32,000 nucleotides of DNA, from positions 1-32,000 of the forward strand of contig JBHLKY010000004.1 of NCBI GenBank assembly GCA_048886185.1, written 5' to 3'. The stretch is from Candidatus Hermodarchaeota archaeon (GTDB lineage: Archaea; Asgardarchaeota; Heimdallarchaeia; Hodarchaeales; Hodarchaeaceae). Made by a program: the position numbers and the translations under genes. Under the pieces are notes generated by a model. It worked only from the letters and a program-made list of their open reading frames with translations, did not search any database and was not told the origin of the DNA. Shown here in pieces: positions 11,838 through 30,698 of the stretch (position 1 is the first letter of the stretch; each line of letters starts with the position of its first letter).

Positions 11838-13175
11838 ATGTCGAAAGATATATTTAGTCAATATGATCCTATAGAAGAGGCACTTCAGGAGGGAATAGAT
11901 CCTGAAGAATATATTATTGGTACTTACATGGTACAACTTGGACCAAGGATGGATCCATGGTTTATAGGAAGAGCTGCTGCCTGTGAGCAGTCAACAGGAA
12001 CTTGGGTACCTGTTCCAGCAAACACACCTGAATTAAGAGCAAAATATGGTGCAAAGGTGATTGGGTTATATGAAGTTCCCTCCTATGAGTTTGAGATTCC
12101 TAAAGGTGTTGAGGAGCGAAATTTTATATATCAAATTGCTTTTCCAATAAAAAATCAAACAGATCAAATTGGCTTGATGTTGACAGCAACAATAGGTAAT
12201 ATTTCAATGGGAGGTAAGCTCAAATTGCTTGATCTTCGTTTCCCTAAACGTTGGACTAAAAACTTTAAAGGTCCAAAATTCGGTATTGCAGGTATTCGTA
12301 GGTTACTCAAAGTTCCCGACCGTCCGTTATTAAATAATATGATTAAGCCATGTAGCGGCTACTCAGCACTCACTGGAGCTCAACTATTCTATTCAGCTGC
12401 TTTAGGGGGATGTGATGTTGTGAAAGATGATGAATTAATTGCTGATATGGACTACAATAAGTTGATTGATAGGGTTCCTCTTATGATGGAGGCAATAGAT
12501 AAAGTACGGGATGAAACTGGAGAGGAAACTCTCTACACAGTAAATATCACAGATAAATTAACTAAGTTAAAAGACAATGCAATAGCTGTTCAAGATGTGG
12601 GGGGTAATGCTTTGATGTTGAATTATTTAGTAGTTGGATTTCCAGCATTACGAATGTTAGCAGAGGATCCAGAAATAAAACTGCCTATTCTTGCTCATAT
12701 GGATTTTGCGGGTGTTTTTTATGAGTCTCCTTACTCTGGAGTCTCCTCGTTTTTAGTAATGGGCAAGCTCGCCCGATTAGCAGGAGCTGATATTGTCGTT
12801 TTTCCAGCTCCCTATGGAAAGGCGCCCTACTTGAAAGAAAAGTATCTTGGTGTTGCTAAAGCTCACCGGTATCGGATGCATAATCTCAAGCCATCATTAC
12901 CAATGCCATCGGGTGGAATTACACCAGGCATGGTTCCAAGAGTTGTACAAGACCTTGGAAGAGATATTATGATTGGTTCAGGTGGTGGCATTCATGCTCA
13001 TCCTGACGGACCTGTTTCTGGAGCGAGAGCCTTCCGTCAAGCTATTGATATATGTATGAAAGATTTAGAAGCTGCAATTGAAGACTTCGAGGATTATGTT
13101 GAGGATCATTCAGAGGAATATCCTGAACTTGCCAAAGCCATGAAGGCTTGGGGTGTATCGGATACACGATTTTAA
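11838..13175 (+). CDS. RuBisCO-like protein (form IV RLP)
   Basis: EQSTGTW, GPKFG, IKP, GGCDVVKDDE, PSGG and GGGIHAHP motifs are present. Positions equivalent to K177, R295 and H327 are substituted (C, M, V). Confidence 0.88.
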   Translation: MSKDIFSQYDPIEEALQEGIDPEEYIIGTYMVQLGPRMDPWFIGRAAACEQSTGTWVPVPANTPELRAKYGAKVIGLYEVPSYEFEIPKGVEERNFIYQIAFPIKNQTDQIGLMLTATIGNISMGGKLKLLDLRFPKRWTKNFKGPKFGIAGIRRLLKVPDRPLLNNMIKPCSGYSALTGAQLFYSAALGGCDVVKDDELIADMDYNKLIDRVPLMMEAIDKVRDETGEETLYTVNITDKLTKLKDNAIAVQDVGGNALMLNYLVVGFPALRMLAEDPEIKLPILAHMDFAGVFYESPYSGVSSFLVMGKLARLAGADIVVFPAPYGKAPYLKEKYLGVAKAHRYRMHNLKPSLPMPSGGITPGMVPRVVQDLGRDIMIGSGGGIHAHPDGPVSGARAFRQAIDICMKDLEAAIEDFEDYVEDHSEEYPELAKAMKAWGVSDTRF

Positions 13176-23206: not shown

Positions 23207-25723
23207 TTAGTAAGAGCTTCTCTTTTTTCTAATGAATATAACAGCTGCTCCTATTGCTGCTCCTCCAGCCACTACTCCTCCTGCTATTAGTAAGAGTTCA
23301 CCAGGGAAACGGGTTGGTGTGGTTTCATTTCTCATTTCTGGAGGTATAATTTCGAAAGCAATAGCCCCTTCTGTAAATACTTCAAGATCTTCATTTACAG
23401 TTGGATTGTATTCGGTTTCTATATCAAAAGCAAAATTTGGTGCAGTAATGTCCTCAATTGAAACCAATAGAGTGGAATTGGCATAATCTTCAGGGAATGG
23501 AAGATCATATCGCCAGAGATCAATGAATAAATAAGATATGGGAGAAACTGTTAGGATTAGATCTGTACTCCAACTCATTGTTTCATTTACACCTTGTACA
23601 TCCCAAGAGAAGATACTTAACAAGTTAAAATTTCCACCATGGACATCAATGTCGGTAACTGTAGCATTTAAATTGGTAGAAGTGTTTCCTATTAGGAATA
23701 CAGTTATATTATAAATTTTGTACAAATCTAAATTTAAAGGAATGCAAAAAACTAGATTTTGTTCAGTAGATGTAGCATTATTGATAAGATATGTAGTAGT
23801 TGTACTGATCGTATCTTTTGGTATATAATAATCAGGCCCCGTTAAACCAGGGATATTGCGTTCCGTTGTAGATTCATCATCGGCAAAACCTGTTGTTACA
23901 TCAAGAGTACCTGAAAATGATGTTAGTGTATGAGTTCCATTATAGGAAAAACTGGGTGAAATGACTAAAATAGGCACTTCATACTCACGAGTAGGCAATA
24001 TCCAATCAGTTATTCCACCACCTTGCTCAAAATCAATCAGGGAATTGTTTGTCTCTCCTGGCCATGCGTTCCAGACTCCATTATTTTCTTGATTACCTAA
24101 TGTATATTGGTCAGAAAACTGATCGATAAAATCCTCATTATATTTACTCGTTATATCTATATCATAGGTAATAGTTTGATTGACCTGATCACTAGTGGAA
24201 ATATTCACCCAATTGACACGACCTCGAGTTAATGGAAGTTCTATCGCCAATATAGTTTCATTATTTATGGAAAATGGTCCATCCATAGGAGTTTGTACTG
24301 TTATTGTATTGAATCGGATTTTTGCTCCTACATCAAAGTTCGTTAACTCTAGAGCATAGTCACCAGGTGGGATATATCTCCATGTAGTATCATCTATGAA
24401 TCTTTCATCAGATATTTTAATCCATTTGGTTGGTTCAGAAACTGATCTATAAATATCATATTCAAAATTTGCAGTCCAATTCGTTTTCATCATGACAGGC
24501 GTACTGATGGTAAAAGTATAATAGAAATTATAATCTAATGTAATATCAGCATTAAAGATTAATGGACTTGTTTCCAGCGTTGTAATAGAAGGTTCTTCTT
24601 GATAAAAAGCATAATATTTTCCATGTGCTTCTCCTGGAGAAAATAGGACGAGAGTTACTGTTTCAGATTCTTGTGCATAAATTACCATACCGTCTTGGTC
24701 GATAGAACCAGAGATCCATTTATAATGTTCACCAACCAAATACCTAACTGGTTCATTACTTGGAACTCCTGGTCTGACATCTTCCATATCAAAGAATGTA
24801 GTTATTCGATAGTATTCATCTTTAATTAGTGATATATCAAACATTCGGATACTAAATATCTCGTTTTCTGGTTCCATCAATTGATCCGTGGTCTCATTTC
24901 TGAGCCAAGGTGTTCCCTGATTTAATTCTCCACTAATTAATGTACTTAAATTAAGCTTGGGAATATAGGTTGGATATTTCCATGAATGCGGAGCTAAAGT
25001 TACTAGAGTAGAATCATTTGTTATTAATGTAAACTTTTGTACGCCATCAATTGTTGGAAAAATCGGATATGTCATCTTATTTTCAGGGACACCAATGATG
25101 TATCCCTCTGGATAAGCAGATTCGAATTCCAGCCACCCCATTACATTGGTAGCACTAAATCCAACATCAAGATAAAATGGGTTATCACTCTCTACATAGC
25201 CCCAATACTCTACCCATCCTTCAGCGAAGAATGTAGAAGAATAATCCATGTGCAAACTGAGAGGTTTTAACGAATTTTGATTAAACACAGGATTTACCTC
25301 ATTAGTAATCCTTACAGCTCGTGGATAAGGAGTTGGTTCGAAAAAGTCGTGTTGGCTATCCCGAGAAGTGTTTTGAAATAATTCATCTTCCCATTGAAAT
25401 GGAACCATACTACCTCTCATCAGATTAGTACTGATTTGATTCCAACCAAAGTAATCTGTAGAAGCATCTGTATACCAAACTAAATTTGTACTTGTACCCC
25501 AGTATTCTACATCTGTATAATCTGTATCAGGAGGGATAACATAATAATCCCATGAACCATATGTAGCTGGGGTGAAAATATCCTTTACTACTTCTATAGG
25601 AATAATTGGTGTTTGTTTTACCGCTAATAATATCGAAGAGACTGGAAGACTAGTCATTAAAGAAACACAAATGAATATAATTTTCATATTTCTTGATTTA
25701 AACATTTTATCATACCCTTTCAC
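23207..25723 (-). CDS. Large cell-surface (glyco)protein with a C-terminal TM anchor
   Basis: N-terminal hydrophobic signal, beta-rich acidic body with many NxS/T sequons, and a C-terminal PGELLLIAGGVVAGGAAIGAAVIFIRKKR. Confidence 0.8.
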   Translation of the reverse strand: MKGYDKMFKSRNMKIIFICVSLMTSLPVSSILLAVKQTPIIPIEVVKDIFTPATYGSWDYYVIPPDTDYTDVEYWGTSTNLVWYTDASTDYFGWNQISTNLMRGSMVPFQWEDELFQNTSRDSQHDFFEPTPYPRAVRITNEVNPVFNQNSLKPLSLHMDYSSTFFAEGWVEYWGYVESDNPFYLDVGFSATNVMGWLEFESAYPEGYIIGVPENKMTYPIFPTIDGVQKFTLITNDSTLVTLAPHSWKYPTYIPKLNLSTLISGELNQGTPWLRNETTDQLMEPENEIFSIRMFDISLIKDEYYRITTFFDMEDVRPGVPSNEPVRYLVGEHYKWISGSIDQDGMVIYAQESETVTLVLFSPGEAHGKYYAFYQEEPSITTLETSPLIFNADITLDYNFYYTFTISTPVMMKTNWTANFEYDIYRSVSEPTKWIKISDERFIDDTTWRYIPPGDYALELTNFDVGAKIRFNTITVQTPMDGPFSINNETILAIELPLTRGRVNWVNISTSDQVNQTITYDIDITSKYNEDFIDQFSDQYTLGNQENNGVWNAWPGETNNSLIDFEQGGGITDWILPTREYEVPILVISPSFSYNGTHTLTSFSGTLDVTTGFADDESTTERNIPGLTGPDYYIPKDTISTTTTYLINNATSTEQNLVFCIPLNLDLYKIYNITVFLIGNTSTNLNATVTDIDVHGGNFNLLSIFSWDVQGVNETMSWSTDLILTVSPISYLFIDLWRYDLPFPEDYANSTLLVSIEDITAPNFAFDIETEYNPTVNEDLEVFTEGAIAFEIIPPEMRNETTPTRFPGELLLIAGGVVAGGAAIGAAVIFIRKKRSSY

Positions 25724-26045
25724 AAGAATTCGATTATTCTCTAATTCTAATGGTCATCAGTACAGATGTTTTTCTTCATGCTTTAAAAAATATATACATT
25801 CAATTCTGCTTGACAACTCAATTCTTTCAGGATTCATCAAATTAAGCATTTATAATTGTAAAAAGAGGAGTGAGGAAAGAGGAGAGAAAATTTATCTTCT
25901 TTATTATCTACCAAGAATATATATCTTAGTTATTGTCACGATTTATTCTCTCAACTTTAACAATAGATTTATAGCACAATTCAAGTTTTATTCTGAAGTG
26001 AGAAATAAGCACCTATTTTATACACTAATTAAGGAATGTTGAGCT

Positions 26046-26423
26046 ATGGTAAACGAGGATTTACTTAGACAATTGTTTGTAAAGAAATCGCTAAAGAATA
26101 ATGAGAAAGGATTCCAACTTCAAATGAAGAATTCGATAAGTGATGCCACAATAATTGCTCCTATCAAACTTGAGATTAGTGGTGAGACTATTGAAAAAGA
26201 AAAATTTAAGGATTTTATCATTGATCTCGATGGAGTGAAGATCAATAATAAAGATATCAATGAGCAAAGTCCTGCGAAGTTCTCTGTTAAATCTACCGCT
26301 ACATTACTTTTTAAGCGGGACAATCCGTTGCCACAAGAGAAATATAAGATCAGATTTACAAAATTATTAACAGAAGAGTACGGAGACCTCCCTTTTGGGA
26401 TGAAAGAACGAGTACGTGATTAG
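26046..26423 (+). CDS. Hypothetical protein (125 aa), probably a soluble beta-sandwich
   Basis: Clean ORF with AAGGA upstream, alternating hydrophobic beta pattern, and a T-rich terminator-like tract downstream. Confidence 0.75.
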   Translation: MVNEDLLRQLFVKKSLKNNEKGFQLQMKNSISDATIIAPIKLEISGETIEKEKFKDFIIDLDGVKINNKDINEQSPAKFSVKSTATLLFKRDNPLPQEKYKIRFTKLLTEEYGDLPFGMKERVRD

Positions 26424-26639
26424 ATTACCCCTCATCTCGGGCCTAATAATTTTTCTTTTTTTCTAATAATATTAATCTCTTTTCTCATTACTTTTTACCT
26501 ATTCCTTCCTTTATGGCTGAATTTCTTCGTCATTCTTGAATGTATCAAGTAAATTGTGATTTTTTGAAAAGAAAAGTTTGTTAAAGAAAAATTCTTAATC
26601 GTCCCATTTCTTTATTGTATAAATTAATCTAAAGGCTGA

Positions 26640-28019
26640 ATGATGAAAATGGAGCATCAAAAACGACTTTTCAAAGATGATGAATTGATTAGGTGGATCA
26701 CAGACATAACTGATGAGGAGATAAATGAGGTTCATAAAAAAAGTTTAGTTCCTTTTTATGATCAGCTATTTGTTGAGGGATATGGTTCCTATTTAAAAGA
26801 TCAGACGGGTAAAGAATTTTTAGATTGTACTGCTCAAGCATGGACATGTAATATTGGTTTTGCAAATCCTGATGTTGCTTTTGCTGTGAGTGAACAATTA
26901 AAAAGGCTGACTCATGTACGATATGGCTTTCCAACAATCCCTCGAATAAAATTCATTCATAAATTGGTCAGTATTACACCTGGAAATTTAAAGAAGGTCG
27001 CGGTTAATGCCATGGGCGGGGGAGCAGCTATCGAAGCTGCATTACGATTGGCTATGATTAATAAACCTGATGCAGAACATTTTTATACGTATACACGAGG
27101 GTATCACGGAAGCTCACTTGCAACAATGACCCTGTCCACACGATTCGCGGGAGTAACCCGTTTTCGCTCTTGGGGATTCGATCGTGTTTCAAAAATTCCT
27201 TTTCCATACTGTTATCGTTGCCCCATGGGACAAGAGGATGAAAAAACATGTCATCTTGAGTGTCTAGAATTAGCAAAACATATGATCGAATATGGTTCAG
27301 TTGACAAAGTGTGTGGAATATTAATGGAGCCACTTCAAGCACCAGGGGGTCATATCCCTGCTCCTAAAGAATATCTTAAGGAGCTTAGGTTTTTTACCCA
27401 AAAAAATGATATTTTTTTAATTTTTGATGAGTCACAAGTTTTCACTCGCATTGGCTACTGGTTCTCTTCAGATTTTTACGAAGGAGTCGTTCCTGACATT
27501 ACTTGTCTTACAAAGGCTATTGGGGGCGGATTGCCTATGGGGGTCACCATTGCACGAGATGATTTAACTGGTTTTAATGCAGCGGAAGAACATACAACAT
27601 TTGGTGCTAATCCCCTTATGTTTGCCTCTGGTTTGGTTTTTCTCAATTACATTGAAAAAGCTGACCTATTAAAAAACACTCGGGATCAGGGAAACTATCT
27701 TACATCCAAATTGAAGCAATTACAGAAAAAATATGATGTAATTGGGGATATCCGATGTCCAGGGTTATTTATTGGTGTTGAATTTGTCAAGGATCCTGAA
27801 ACTAAAGAACCTGCAAATGCTCTTTGCTCTGATCTCATTGAGGAAGCTATGAATCAAGGAGTGATTTTTGGTCACTCTGCACCAATATCCTCAGATACTG
27901 GAAAACTCTTCAGAAATGTCCTTAAGATTAAACCACCACTCATAATCAACCGTGAAGATTCTGACCAAATTTTAACTGTTTTTGAATCAGCACTTGAAGA
28001 AGCTATAGATTATATGTAA
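26640..28019 (+). CDS. Class-III PLP-dependent aminotransferase-fold enzyme, possibly a phospho-lyase
   Basis: GYHGSS, EPLQAPGG, FDESQ, PDITCLTKAIGGGLP (PLP lysine), HTTFGANP, and C-terminal NVLKIKPPL. Confidence 0.88.
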   Translation: MMKMEHQKRLFKDDELIRWITDITDEEINEVHKKSLVPFYDQLFVEGYGSYLKDQTGKEFLDCTAQAWTCNIGFANPDVAFAVSEQLKRLTHVRYGFPTIPRIKFIHKLVSITPGNLKKVAVNAMGGGAAIEAALRLAMINKPDAEHFYTYTRGYHGSSLATMTLSTRFAGVTRFRSWGFDRVSKIPFPYCYRCPMGQEDEKTCHLECLELAKHMIEYGSVDKVCGILMEPLQAPGGHIPAPKEYLKELRFFTQKNDIFLIFDESQVFTRIGYWFSSDFYEGVVPDITCLTKAIGGGLPMGVTIARDDLTGFNAAEEHTTFGANPLMFASGLVFLNYIEKADLLKNTRDQGNYLTSKLKQLQKKYDVIGDIRCPGLFIGVEFVKDPETKEPANALCSDLIEEAMNQGVIFGHSAPISSDTGKLFRNVLKIKPPLIINREDSDQILTVFESALEEAIDYM

Positions 28020-28035
28020 GATAAGCTTTCAATTA

Positions 28036-29649
28036 TTGAAGTTGATTGATTTGACTGAAAGAAAATTCCTAGCATATGATTTGGGGACGACTGCAACCAA
28101 GGCCGTCCTCATTTCTAACCAAATAGAATTTATTGACTCTTCAGTTGAAGAGTATAAAACTTACTTTCCTCAGCTCGGATATGCTGAGCACAATCCAGAG
28201 GATTGGTGGCGTACTATTGTATCAACCACAAAAAAGCTTCTTGAAAAAACCAGTACGCCTCCTGATGAGATTGGAGCGTTAACTTTCTGTTCCCAGATGC
28301 AAGGGTTAACCCCTGTAGATGAACAGGGCACCCCATTGATGAATTGTATGATATGGTTGGATGCCAGGGGGTCAGAGTATCTGTATAAACTATGGCCATG
28401 GCCACGAGTCATGGGATATTCTCCATATCGGTTATTTCTAAAATTTTTAAAAATAACAGGAGGTGCTCCTGGGCTTACAGGTAAAGATCAAATTCCAAAA
28501 ATTCTTTGGTTAAAAAATAAGCATCCAGAGATCTATAATAAAACCTACAAGTTTTTAGATGTGAAAGATTATGTGATCTTTCGATTAACTGGGAAAATGG
28601 TAACTAGTACTGATTTTGCGTATGTTTGGTGGCTTCTTGATACAAGGAAGAAAGAAGGAATACCAAGGAATGAATGGTCTGAAACTTTGTGTAAAATGTA
28701 CAAAATAGATATGAAAAAACTCCCAGAAGTTGAAAAACCCACTGAAATTATTGGCTCCTTAACCGATGAGGCAGCAAGTACGCTTGGTCTTCTAAAAGAA
28801 ACGCCTATTGTCTGCGGTGTAGGAGATCTGACAGCTGCGGCAATTGGTTCTGGTGCGGTACTAGATAGTGAGTTACATTGTCAAATAGGAACTTCTGGAT
28901 GGGTTGCAGGTCATGTATCTGATAGAAAGGTAGATATAAATCATTATACTGGATGTGTTGGATCAGCTTTTCCTGATAAATTCTATTTGGCTGTAGCACA
29001 TCAAGAAATTGCTGGAGCATGTCTTGAATGGGTAAAGAAAAACATTATTTATTATAAAGAAGAATTACTAGCAAAAGAGAAGAAACAAGTCTATGAGATC
29101 TTTGATGAGTTAGTATCTAGTTGCAACCCTGGAGCCAAAGGTAAGGGAGGGACTTATCTAATGTTCTTACCTTGGTTTGCAGGGGAGAGAGCTCCATTAG
29201 ATGACGATCATGTTCGCGGTGGATTGATGAATCTTTCACTGGATCATGACAGGAGGCATTTACTTCGTGCGGTTTTTGAAGGTGTTGCTCTTAATGCAAG
29301 ATGGGCTTTAGAGACCGTTGAAAACCTGTACTCTCCTGTACATTCGCTTTCTATTATTGGAGGAGGAGCCAAATCTGATGTTTGGTGTCAGATTTATGCT
29401 GATGTGCTAAATAGAACCATTCACCGAGTAAAAGATCCACAGGAAGCTGGTGCATTAGGAGCAGCCATTGTAGCGAAAATGGCTTTGAGTGAACTCAAAG
29501 ATATATCTGAAATAAAAGACTACATTCACTTTGATCTTAAGTTTACTCCCAATCCTGACCATCGTGATCTATATGACCATCTGTACAAGGAGTTTAAGAA
29601 TCTCTATAAACAAAATAAAAAATGGTTTAAACGTATGAACACACTTTGA
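28036..29649 (+). CDS. FGGY-family carbohydrate kinase (xylulokinase-like)
   Basis: AYDLGTTATKA, EHNPEDWW, CSQMQG, IWLDAR, GVGDLTAA, LPWFAGERAP, IIGGGAKS. TTG start 16 nt after the upstream stop. Confidence 0.92.
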   Translation: MKLIDLTERKFLAYDLGTTATKAVLISNQIEFIDSSVEEYKTYFPQLGYAEHNPEDWWRTIVSTTKKLLEKTSTPPDEIGALTFCSQMQGLTPVDEQGTPLMNCMIWLDARGSEYLYKLWPWPRVMGYSPYRLFLKFLKITGGAPGLTGKDQIPKILWLKNKHPEIYNKTYKFLDVKDYVIFRLTGKMVTSTDFAYVWWLLDTRKKEGIPRNEWSETLCKMYKIDMKKLPEVEKPTEIIGSLTDEAASTLGLLKETPIVCGVGDLTAAAIGSGAVLDSELHCQIGTSGWVAGHVSDRKVDINHYTGCVGSAFPDKFYLAVAHQEIAGACLEWVKKNIIYYKEELLAKEKKQVYEIFDELVSSCNPGAKGKGGTYLMFLPWFAGERAPLDDDHVRGGLMNLSLDHDRRHLLRAVFEGVALNARWALETVENLYSPVHSLSIIGGGAKSDVWCQIYADVLNRTIHRVKDPQEAGALGAAIVAKMALSELKDISEIKDYIHFDLKFTPNPDHRDLYDHLYKEFKNLYKQNKKWFKRMNTL

Positions 29650-29672: not shown

Positions 29673-30698
29673 CTACGTTGAGACTATAGCAAAATCATCT
29701 GGGAATTTCATTTGTAAATAAGCTTGAATCTCCTCTCCATCAATCTGCTCAATGAATATATTTGTTTCTGGAATCTTTATTCTGGTCCAAACTAATAGAT
29801 CTTTACCAATCGAGACACTCTTTCTCATAGAATCAGATTCATTAACTATCAGAATCACAGAGAAATCTGGCTCCTCCACACGGACCAATTTATAATTATC
29901 CGATACTTCATCTTTTCCAGCAGTTTGACTGCGTTTCATCAGGATCTCTTTTACTCCAGCTCCCATTGATGCTTCAGCAAAAGTGTTGACAGCAGAAAAC
30001 ATGCTTGTTAATAGCGCAGGATCATAATGGGATTTTCCTTGAGTGGATGTACTGCTCCCAATTAAAATCCCTGATTCTGTTTGGTAAATACAAACATTAT
30101 AGATGTTGATATTAGGCAGGATAATTTCACCAGTTAACGTTTCTATTAACCAGTCGAATGCTTGATAAAAATTCGTTCCTGTCTTTGCTGACATATGAAA
30201 TATATTAATAGCGCGGAAATTCCCCTTTGTTTGAATATCGTAAAGATCAAAATTTTTAAGTAATGTAACGTAGGGATCTACTCCTGATATATCCGCTTTA
30301 TTCGCTGCTATAAGAAGAACAGCGTTCTCGGGAATATTTGGCATTGCATTATAGAGAGCAGCTCTACTAGATGGAAAACTGCTAGGATTAGAACAATCTA
30401 CCACAAATACTACAGCAGTGGATAATTTCAGATAATCTCCCCAAATCATGTGAAATGACTCTTGCCCACCTAGATCAAATGCTTGAAATTGAACATTTCG
30501 ATATACAAACGAGTCAACATTCAATCCCATTGTTCTTACTGAACTCCCATAGAATTCCCCTGTTCTTAAGCGATGAAGAATGGTAGTTTTTCCTGCATAT
30601 GCTTCTCCTATGAAGGTAATTAGTTCTTGCTGAGGAGGAGTTGCAGTAGCTTTCTCTTCCTTCGAATGACGTCTAAAGAGTCTCTTTAACAGGGAAAT
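29673..30698 (-). CDS. Arf-family small GTPase fused to a C-terminal longin/roadblock-like domain (341 aa, probable ATT start)
   Basis: The frame stays open 56 codons above the track's ATG (30530) and contains the P-loop GEAYAGKTT. Other motifs: G2 RTMGLNV, G3 DLGGQ, G4 NKAD, G5 SAK. GGAGGA SD (30706-30711) lies 7 nt before the ATT at 30698. Confidence 0.85.
   Translation of the reverse strand: MSLLKRLFRRHSKEEKATATPPQQELITFIGEAYAGKTTILHRLRTGEFYGSSVRTMGLNVDSFVYRNVQFQAFDLGGQESFHMIWGDYLKLSTAVVFVVDCSNPSSFPSSRAALYNAMPNIPENAVLLIAANKADISGVDPYVTLLKNFDLYDIQTKGNFRAINIFHMSAKTGTNFYQAFDWLIETLTGEIILPNINIYNVCIYQTESGILIGSSTSTQGKSHYDPALLTSMFSAVNTFAEASMGAGVKEILMKRSQTAGKDEVSDNYKLVRVEEPDFSVILIVNESDSMRKSVSIGKDLLVWTRIKIPETNIFIEQIDGEEIQAYLQMKFPDDFAIVST

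Follow-up and report, generated by a model that had tools for sequence, protein, structure and literature searches.

Class-III PLP enzymes that depend on 2-oxoglutarate, such as GabT, OAT and AcOAT, share a recognition and gateway triad, namely R141, E211 and R398 in GabT (supplement, PMC8154272). Another member of the class, PbfA, was identified via its operon context as a (R)-1-hydroxy-2-aminoethylphosphonate ammonia-lyase (PMC8154272); it no longer has the two Arg residues or the Glu of this triad, and its substrate is a phosphorus-bearing amine. The phospho-lyase group, represented by ETNPPL (6TOR), Arthrobacter A1RDF1 (5G4I) and ETNPPL-like domains fused to APH-fold kinases, displays the class-III fold, has exchanged the carboxylate-binding Arg for a Lys, with a Lys or Arg two residues further on, and carries an Arg in a loop reading NSRF (ETNPPL) or HTRY (A1RDF1). 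These proteins carry neither the gateway Glu nor R141, and a kinase is encoded alongside. Aligned at the K-x-K strand, ETNPPL 6tor reads HRNVLKIKPPMCF and A1RDF1 5g4i reads NVLKMRPPLVF, 100 of 101 APH fusions have NVLKIKPP or NVLKIRPP, and dialkylglycine decarboxylase reads GVFRIAPPL. A preliminary description of the locus studied here had named the K-x-K pattern as a mark of phospho-lyases and APH-fold kinases as their normal partners, and both statements are borne out, the former for ETNPPL, A1RDF1 and the APH fusions, the latter by about 100 ETNPPL-like APH fusions.

In the methionine salvage of Bacillus and Geobacillus, MtnW (2OEK, 2ZVI), a RuBisCO relative that does not carboxylate, works on a phosphorylated derivative of a keto sugar which the kinase MtnK provides. 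Most lineages of RuBisCO-like proteins have no assigned function; to our knowledge, the known members of the superfamily all act on phosphorylated substrates.

A class-III enzyme with a phospho-lyase residue pattern

In the window, i.e., the whole stretch of 32,000 nucleotides of Asgard archaeal DNA analysed here, a class-III PLP enzyme of 459 aa is encoded at positions 26640–28019 on the forward strand (PF00202, 3e-76). Its fold, the catalytic Schiff-base Lys K292 (nt 27513–27515), D263 as the Asp facing the pyridine N and T320 as the Thr contributed by the adjacent subunit identify it as a member of the class, the three residues being invariant in its family, and an AF2 model (pLDDT 84.5) shows a generic class-III fold which matches class-III structures. 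Reading frames, Pfam matches and motif positions confirmed all features listed in the preliminary description, including the loss of the gateway Glu and an FGGY kinase 16 nt downstream. On the forward strand, the THVRY loop (residues 91–95, nt 26910–26924) carries R94; EPLQAPGG (residues 230–237, nt 27327–27350) has P235 at the position of GabT E211; DESQVFTRIG (residues 263–272, nt 27426–27455) is one residue shorter than in relatives of the DEVQTGFGRTG type, a deletion seen only in the Heimdall/Odin branch; and the NVLKIKPP strand (residues 426–433, nt 27915–27938), the site of the carboxylate-binding Arg in class-III transaminases, contains K429 and K431.

The positions of R141, E211 and R398 are taken by S158, P235 and K429, and by A/S/C/N, A/P/S and K in the family, so that the entire triad of the 2-oxoglutarate-dependent transaminases is replaced. 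The enzyme does carry the phospho-lyase signature NVLK[IM][KR]PP, i.e., Lys at the position of R398 and Lys or Arg two residues on; indeed, its 9-mer RNVLKIKPP, which includes R425, is identical to that of human ETNPPL. R94 aligns with the NSRF loop of ETNPPL and the HTRY loop of A1RDF1 and is absent in Arg-type relatives. Together with R102, K429 and K431 it makes up a basic cluster in which R94, R102 and K431 are invariant. R94, K431 and the catalytic K292 are kept in 118 of 118 family members, whose identity goes down to 44%, and K429 in 113 of them; Thr replaces K429 in the Frey/Jord copies, which still retain the kinase.

Membership of the ETNPPL/PHYKPL clade is not supported. ML trees place the family in a K-x-K clade separate from the ETNPPL clade, both with starred support, although a single clade uniting the two was not rejected by the AU test (p 0.0985, delta lnL 31). 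Identity to the phospho-lyase group is about 30%; the GNGHP and NNV..VGH motifs of ETNPPL are absent, and the family instead has CYRC..C..C and W68, which are common to Arg-type relatives but not to ETNPPL. The Cys4 motif was considered as a hallmark of the family and rejected, being common to Arg-type relatives. Isoleucine 2-epimerase (4YSN), the class-III aminotransferase 7VNO of Pyrococcus horikoshii and dialkylglycine decarboxylase are the closest solved relatives in sequence (186 bits for isoleucine 2-epimerase versus 143 bits for ETNPPL; about 29% identity) as well as in fold (TM 0.78–0.82 to the model), while 6tor and 5g4i were not found among the 50 best structural matches. These three differ from our enzyme in having an Arg at the position of K429 (NILRFQPP, SAIRLIPP, GVFRIAPP) and in their carboxylate-bearing substrates. 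PbfA is set apart by a score of 219 for our enzyme against the NF049939 cut-off of 525, by its conserved Lys, reported at the Arg position of omega-transaminases and not at that of K429, and by its phosphonate operons, in contrast to the kinase and RuBisCO-like operons found here.

A conserved unit with an FGGY kinase and a RuBisCO-like protein

After a spacer of 16 nt (28020–28035), the PLP gene is followed on the same strand by an FGGY-family kinase of 537 aa with a TTG start (28036–29649; PF00370 and PF02782). Aligned with 2itm and 3gbt, its DLGTTATK, GVGD, GTSG and GGGA motifs are intact, as in FGGY carbohydrate kinases, and its fold family differs from the APH/choline-kinase fold of the phospho-lyase partners. 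The kinase falls below every NCBIfam equivalog cut-off, the top model being XylB (TIGR01312, 307.4 bits versus 380.25), with the other FGGY equivalogs still further off.

The third member, which the preliminary description had missed, is a form-IV RuBisCO-like protein encoded at 11838–13175 on the forward strand. In the window it lies 13 kb from the PLP/kinase pair, while in most other lineages its gene is located directly 3' of the kinase; its distribution over genomes follows that of the PLP gene. Sequence identity is 77% with the Odin copy and 53–57% with the in-operon copies of Scotarchaeum and Chloroflexota. Coupling to such a protein is a further difference from the ETNPPL type.

In a neighbourhood survey of 36 family loci, 29 had the kinase beside the PLP gene, on the same strand and mostly 4–400 nt away. 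The FGGY linkage is thus conserved, and by its scores the kinase is no plain xylulokinase. The 29 loci represent Heimdall/Hod, Odin, Baldr, Frey/Jord, Scotarchaeum, Thermoplasmata, Thermoflexus and Anaerolineae, and the RuBisCO-like protein was seen in 21 of them; the seven loci lacking the kinase belong to Hel, Promethearchaeota and Atabeyarchaeia. In nearly all loci the order is PLP enzyme, kinase, RuBisCO-like protein. Since the residues are kept in 118 family members and the adjacency recurs in distant lineages, the motif set and its kinase neighbour represent more than chance. The K-x-K PLP enzyme, the FGGY kinase and the form-IV RuBisCO-like protein form a conserved three-enzyme unit in many uncultured anaerobes, of which our literature search, including papers on RuBisCO-like proteins since 2022, found no published description. 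Within the genus of the window, 18 of 21 genomes have a high-identity PLP gene, 18 the RuBisCO-like protein and all 21 the kinase; a search of 20 more distant relatives found none of the three. Among proteins of 805–2295 aa, no FGGY-PLP fusion was detected; the fusions present were all APH-M23-PLP proteins of ETNPPL type.

More distant K-x-K relatives (35–45% identity) mostly stand beside Zn-ADH, LysR, sugar-binding protein and SIS genes and have a kinase neighbour in just 3 of 42 cases, which means that K429 and K431 need not bind phosphate. The extra basic residues specific to the family, R94 and R102, coincide exactly with the kinase-linked branch.

Other neighbours vary. A CGDB-like protein of 125 aa (26046–26423, forward strand; PF25653) is encoded upstream of the PLP gene; its fold resembles beta subunits of C-glycoside deglycosidases. 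As an optional accessory, it occurs with the module in Heimdall/Hod, in Odin and in one locus of Thermoplasmata. The reading frame at 25572–26042 (156 aa) was rejected as a gene, with no Pfam match and no conservation even inside the genus. AOR, SCP2 and Fe-ADH were rejected as conserved downstream steps, having been seen only in the genus of the window, except that the Hel variant also has SCP2. AOR and ADH, which lie between the module parts and to which processing of a carbonyl product had been ascribed, are a genus-specific insertion. MFS_1 is the sole recurrent extra neighbour (six matches among the neighbours of about 20 loci) and fits uptake; TIM and RpiB paralogues did not recur as neighbours in the sampled loci of the K-x-K type.

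Exchange of the amine-handling partner and a proposed pathway

When the search was anchored on the RuBisCO-like protein, the FGGY kinase was found directly upstream of its gene in 47 of 58 loci. Both flanks were visible in 43 loci, and the third partner in these is interchangeable: a K-x-K enzyme in 11, a saccharopine-dehydrogenase-like enzyme in 16, the latter with another class-III enzyme in one, other class-III enzymes alone in six, and none seen in nine. The other class-III partners are HemL-like or putrescine-type aminotransferases. The K-x-K enzyme and the saccharopine-dehydrogenase-like enzyme never co-occur, and, when compared by BLAST, the saccharopine dehydrogenase gene near the module of the genus (locus L032, 19031–20365) did not match the dehydrogenase-like partner found in sister operons. 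On the tree of the RuBisCO-like protein, at least 10 changes of partner type fall between close relatives, which indicates that these enzymes are probably functionally equivalent in converting an amine to a carbonyl, though the dehydrogenase-like partner could mark another substrate instead of an equivalent step.

An NAD(P) dehydrogenase-like enzyme is incapable of phosphate elimination. As the kinase is the constant neighbour of the RuBisCO-like protein while the amine-handling enzyme varies, the data favour a phosphate-retaining step over elimination, and this step is most likely the transamination of a phospho-amine. The elimination mechanism originally suggested is not supported, nor is the role given to AOR/ADH; catabolism of an amine-bearing polyol or sugar is still the best reading of the module.

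Following this reading, the FGGY kinase would transfer phosphate to a primary hydroxyl of a small polyol or sugar that bears an amine and has been taken up by the cell. The phospho-amine would then be bound by the PLP enzyme, whose cluster of R94, R102, K429 and K431 resembles the anion site of phospho-lyases, and its amine-bearing carbon would be converted to a carbonyl by transamination, with the phosphate retained. Finally, the RuBisCO-like protein would enolise or isomerise the keto-phosphate to give a central sugar phosphate. Transamination requires a keto-acid acceptor, yet neither of the known carboxylate positions of the PLP enzyme holds an Arg; a candidate for binding the carboxylate of the acceptor is R425. 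Judged from the sequences, we put the probability that the PLP enzyme and the kinase provide the amine-handling and phosphorylating steps of a three-enzyme catabolic module, often with an MFS transporter, at roughly 0.45.

Alternative readings and biological meaning

The PLP enzyme might instead be a true phospho-lyase, the FGGY kinase phosphorylating a hydroxyl beside the amine and the PLP enzyme eliminating phosphate and ammonia to yield a carbonyl product. K429, K431 and R94 are common to ETNPPL and A1RDF1, as is the absence of the gateway Glu and R141, the identical 9-mer and the AU test agree with this, and pairing of kinase and lyase is the rule for ETNPPL-like proteins. The trees, the bit scores, the structural matches and the motifs held in common with Arg-type relatives point away from it, and elimination would strip off the phosphate that the conserved partner, a RuBisCO-like protein, is expected to require. 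Moreover, near-identical RuBisCO-like proteins of sister operons are accompanied by HemL-like or putrescine-type aminotransferases or by the NAD(P) dehydrogenase-like enzyme. We regard a phospho-lyase as unlikely, at about one chance in five.

Equally unlikely is an omega-transaminase acting first, on the unphosphorylated amine, after which the kinase would phosphorylate the keto sugar for the RuBisCO-like protein and the lysines would have nothing to do with phosphate. The prevailing gene order matches this sequence of steps, W68 is a residue of omega-transaminase type, most of the wider K-x-K clade lacks a kinase neighbour, and an exchange for a dehydrogenase-like enzyme fits equally well; the absence of an Arg for the keto-acid acceptor, the restriction of R94 and R102 to the kinase-linked branch and the match of R94 to the phospho-lyase loop argue against it.

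A variant of SAM by-product salvage from methylthioribose or 5-deoxyribose, with the kinase in place of MtnK, an MtnW-like RuBisCO-like protein and the PLP enzyme converting the keto acid to methionine, appears improbable. MtnW is the solved structure nearest to the RuBisCO-like protein (2oek, 277 bits), and an MtnU-like Nit-family amidase lies near the module in four loci, albeit sporadically. The scores of 345 against the NF007095 cut-off of 409 and of 295 against 514 for TIGR03332 nevertheless fall short of the MtnW/YkrW equivalogs, and an Asn (TIGNISM aligned with TFGKLSL) occupies the position of Lys98 (Geobacillus numbering), which is reportedly the catalytic Lys of MtnW. The kinase differs in fold from MtnK, Pfam tallies of the neighbours contain no relatives of MtnA, MtnB, MtnD or MtnX, the recurrent neighbour is an MFS transporter, and the PLP enzyme is without a carboxylate-binding Arg. 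That a housekeeping aminotransferase and a plain xylulokinase lie side by side by chance, a reading for which only the rank of XylB as best-scoring model (307 versus a cut-off of 380) could be cited, is refuted by a linkage conserved across two domains of life and by the presence of all three genes in most genomes of one genus but in 0 of 20 more distant relatives.

Returning to the three-enzyme reading, we consider it nearly an even chance that Asgard archaea, Thermoplasmata and Chloroflexota share an undescribed, RuBisCO-like-dependent catabolism of amine-bearing polyols or sugars, in which a PLP enzyme with a phospho-lyase-type anion site, of independent origin or from an ancient common ancestor, would act on the product of the kinase, and the RuBisCO-like protein would catalyse a reaction new to its superfamily. 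This RuBisCO-like lineage is among the more widespread ones in anoxic sediments, and its two partner enzymes narrow the search for its substrate. With this PLP family, the phospho-lyase residue pattern is found in a second class-III lineage, which is probably separate and has a sugar-type kinase as partner; this provides a natural test of whether K-x-K sets the substrate, through phosphate binding, or the type of reaction, i.e., elimination. If the substrate were found, metabolic models of Asgard archaea and Chloroflexota would gain an extra source of carbon and nitrogen.

Gene arrangement and conserved linkage

Both plus-strand genes of the preliminary description were recovered, namely a class-III PLP enzyme of 459 aa (26640-28019; PF00202, 3e-76) and an FGGY kinase of 537 aa carrying both FGGY domains (28036-29649), whose TTG start lies 16 nt past the TAA of the PLP gene. 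All four described motifs are present in the PLP enzyme: THVRY (residues 91-95), EPLQAPGG (230-237), DESQVFTRIG (263-272), and NVLKIKPP (426-433; nt 27915-27938). None of the NCBIfam equivalog cut-offs was reached by either protein, the best scores being 267 for the PLP enzyme (cut-off 608) and 307, to XylB, for the kinase (cut-off 380). Alignment with solved gluconate and xylulose kinases revealed that the DxGT, GxGD, GTSG, and GGGA motifs of the kinase are retained.

Upstream of the PLP gene lies a gene for a 125-aa protein (26046-26423; PF25653, weak CGDB match). The AT-rich 217-nt spacer between them (26424-26639) displays a T-run right behind the small gene as well as, roughly 25 nt ahead of the PLP ATG, a TATAAAT-like stretch; the PLP-kinase pair of the window genome may be transcribed from a promoter of its own. 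In the genus relative L032, the gap is just 40 nt. Directly downstream of the kinase, an Arf-like GTPase gene lies on the opposite strand (29673-30530, minus strand), a layout also seen in L032 (13005-14057). An ORF of 156 aa at 25572-26042 has no Pfam match, overlaps the end of a minus-strand ORF of 838 aa, is not conserved among genus relatives, and is probably not a gene.

By the names of its close homologues, the genome belongs with Asgard archaea of the Heimdall/Hodarchaeales type. All readable loci of the genus have the small-protein gene followed by the PLP gene and the kinase. Outside the genus, 36 distinct family loci emerged from look-ups and from scanning a single genome for each species, defined by the HVRY loop and the invariant Lys at position 431 (position 429 is Thr in Frey and Jord copies). 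The FGGY linkage proposed earlier is indeed conserved: 29 of the 36 have an FGGY gene behind the PLP gene in the same orientation, mostly at a distance of 4-400 nt, and these 29 come from Heimdall/Hod, Odin, Baldr, Frey, Jord, "Ca. Scotarchaeum", a Thermoplasmata MAG, Thermoflexus, Anaerolineae, and other Chloroflexota. The seven loci without this kinase gene belong to Helarchaeota (one), Promethearchaeota (four), Atabeyarchaeia (one), and one other archaeon; the Helarchaeota locus (L033:5009-10717) encodes SCP2, an acetoacetate-decarboxylase-like protein (ADC), the PLP enzyme, FAD_binding_4, and a CCG-domain protein. Searches for high-identity orthologues (E 1e-80 or 1e-100) matched the kinase in 21/21 genus genomes and the PLP enzyme and RuBisCO-like protein in 18/21 each, and none of the three in 20 more distant relatives.

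Residues and placement of the PLP enzyme

The class-III recognition system of E. coli GabT uses R141 to bind the distal carboxylate and E211 and R398 as the "gateway", while ETNPPL has His at the R141 position (supplement of the PbfA paper, PMC8154272). At these three positions, the window enzyme has S158, P235, and K429. K431, R94, and K292 are invariant among 118 family sequences, down to 44% identity, and K429 occurs in 113 of them, the Frey and Jord copies being among the exceptions; R102 is invariant in a 16-sequence alignment (A1).

The K-x-K signature cited in the preliminary description does hold for ETNPPL and for its relatives in prokaryotes. A search for longer homologues, made to gather ETNPPL-type sequences, uncovered about 100 proteins in which an APH-fold kinase is fused to a class-III domain, often with an M23 domain as well, and NVLKIKPP, NVLKIRPP, or a close variant is present in 100/101 APH-fusion sequences. 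With one fusion as query against solved structures, the corresponding motifs read HRNVLKIKPPMCF in human ETNPPL (6tor), NVLKMRPPLVF in the Arthrobacter phospho-lyase A1RDF1 (5g4i), and GVFRIAPPL in dialkylglycine decarboxylase. Moreover, the THVRY Arg aligns with NSRF of ETNPPL and HTRY of A1RDF1, and is lacking in relatives that keep Arg at the K429 position.

Still, the evidence speaks, if not conclusively, against membership in the ETNPPL-type family. ETNPPL ranks only 17th among solved relatives (143 bits), behind isoleucine 2-epimerase and a Pyrococcus aminotransferase (186 bits), each with Arg at the K429 position. The AF2 model (pLDDT 84.5) resembles generic class-III structures, and neither 6tor nor 5g4i is among its best 50 structural matches. 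Both a 179-row FastTree and an 80-row IQ-TREE analysis (C20 mixture) placed the window enzyme in a starred clade made up, with few exceptions, of K-x-K sequences; the ETNPPL-like fusions fall elsewhere, among Arg-type sequences, where they form a starred clade of their own. Joining all K-x-K sequences costs 31 log-likelihood units at an AU p of 0.0985, so that a single origin is not rejected, in a comparison where the group was partly defined after the tree was seen and the motif columns stood in the alignment. The aligned window family lacks the GNGHP and NNV..VGH motifs of ETNPPL and has W68 and a CYRC..C..C motif in common with Arg-type class-III relatives. The cysteine motif recurs in many of these and is absent from ETNPPL-like proteins. 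Its four invariant cysteines, C191, C194, C204, and C208 (PYCYRCP..C...C; residues 191-208, window 27210-27263), suggest a metal site.

The RuBisCO-like protein and a variable partner

The preliminary description had missed a third member. A RuBisCO large-subunit homologue lies inside the fetched stretch in 21/36 family loci, mostly right behind the kinase. Its window orthologue (11838-13175) shares 77% identity with the Odin copy and 53-57% with Scotarchaeum and Chloroflexota copies; in the genus, 7-13 kb usually separate this gene from the PLP gene, with AOR, SCP2, Fe-ADH, and acyl-CoA ligase genes inserted between. We found no description of such a PLP/FGGY/RuBisCO-like module in the literature searched. 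The nearest relative of the RuBisCO-like protein is MtnW (2oek; 277 bits), below whose equivalog cut-offs it falls; the KDDE metal site is kept, and Asn occupies the position of Lys98, the catalytic base of MtnW. A second RuBisCO-like paralogue of about 52% identity exists in the genus (G000:C21:5835-7118; relatives such as G019:C32:1793-3079), as does, in many members and sometimes on the same contig (G019, 15785-17347), an FGGY paralogue of about 45% identity; together, these may form a second module.

The 125-aa protein travels with the module in Heimdall/Hod, Odin, and one Thermoplasmata locus. Its model, a beta-sandwich (pLDDT 89), has a predicted fold similar to the C-glycoside deglycosidase beta subunits DfgB, DgpB, and CarC (TM 0.65-0.69). 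Such subunits bind TIM-barrel catalytic subunits, and the small protein may serve a barrel enzyme, for example the RuBisCO-like protein, as an accessory subunit.

A second search, anchored on the RuBisCO-like protein, returned 80 metagenome loci; of the 58 with enough flank, 47 have an FGGY gene immediately upstream. Beside this pair, the partner varied among 43 loci with both flanks visible: the K-x-K enzyme of the present family in 11, a saccharopine-dehydrogenase/carboxynorspermidine-synthase-like protein (PF03435 + PF16653) in 16, the latter plus another class-III enzyme in one, another class-III enzyme (HemL-like, or putrescine/acetylornithine-type) in six, and none recognised in nine; the K-x-K and dehydrogenase-like enzymes never co-occurred in these 43. 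The dehydrogenase-like protein (L173:9238-10515, a metagenome locus; 62 bits to NF043000) replaces the PLP enzyme beside orthologous kinase/RuBisCO-like pairs there and in 24 further metagenome loci. In a tree comprising 99 RuBisCO-like proteins, at least ten switches of partner type occur, of which starred branches require at least four to six, the branches between the proteins concerned being short. In the simplest reading, a single step, which converts an amine-bearing carbon to a carbonyl, has repeatedly undergone non-orthologous replacement.

The proposed reaction and its alternatives

We favour a transaminase that would act on the kinase product and retain the phosphate, since the dehydrogenase-like and HemL-like partners are incapable of phosphate elimination, and all RuBisCO-superfamily enzymes whose function is known to us use a phosphorylated keto substrate. 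The basic cluster of R94, R102, K429, and K431 would be the phosphate site. This reading is weakened in that no keto-acid-binding Arg is evident in the PLP enzyme, R425 being a candidate only. Furthermore, more distant K-x-K relatives, which lack the HVRY Arg and are 35-45% identical, mostly adjoin not kinases but Zn-ADH, LysR regulators, sugar-binding proteins, SIS-domain proteins, and amino-acid permeases, so the lysines alone are no proof of phosphate binding.

Alternatively, the transaminase may act first and the kinase second. Elimination of phosphate by the PLP enzyme, as originally proposed, draws on the residue identity with ETNPPL; given the partners and the phosphorylated substrates of the RuBisCO superfamily, we consider it unlikely. 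A pathway resembling methionine salvage, suggested by the likeness to MtnW and a Nit-type amidase in four loci, has little support.

An amino-polyol-type compound, as first suggested, is still the likely substrate; AOR and ADH, earlier named as enzymes that could act downstream, are probably not part of the route, as their genes are among the insertions seen in the genus. The only recurrent extra neighbour of K-x-K-type loci is an MFS transporter, which fits a role of the module in uptake and catabolism.
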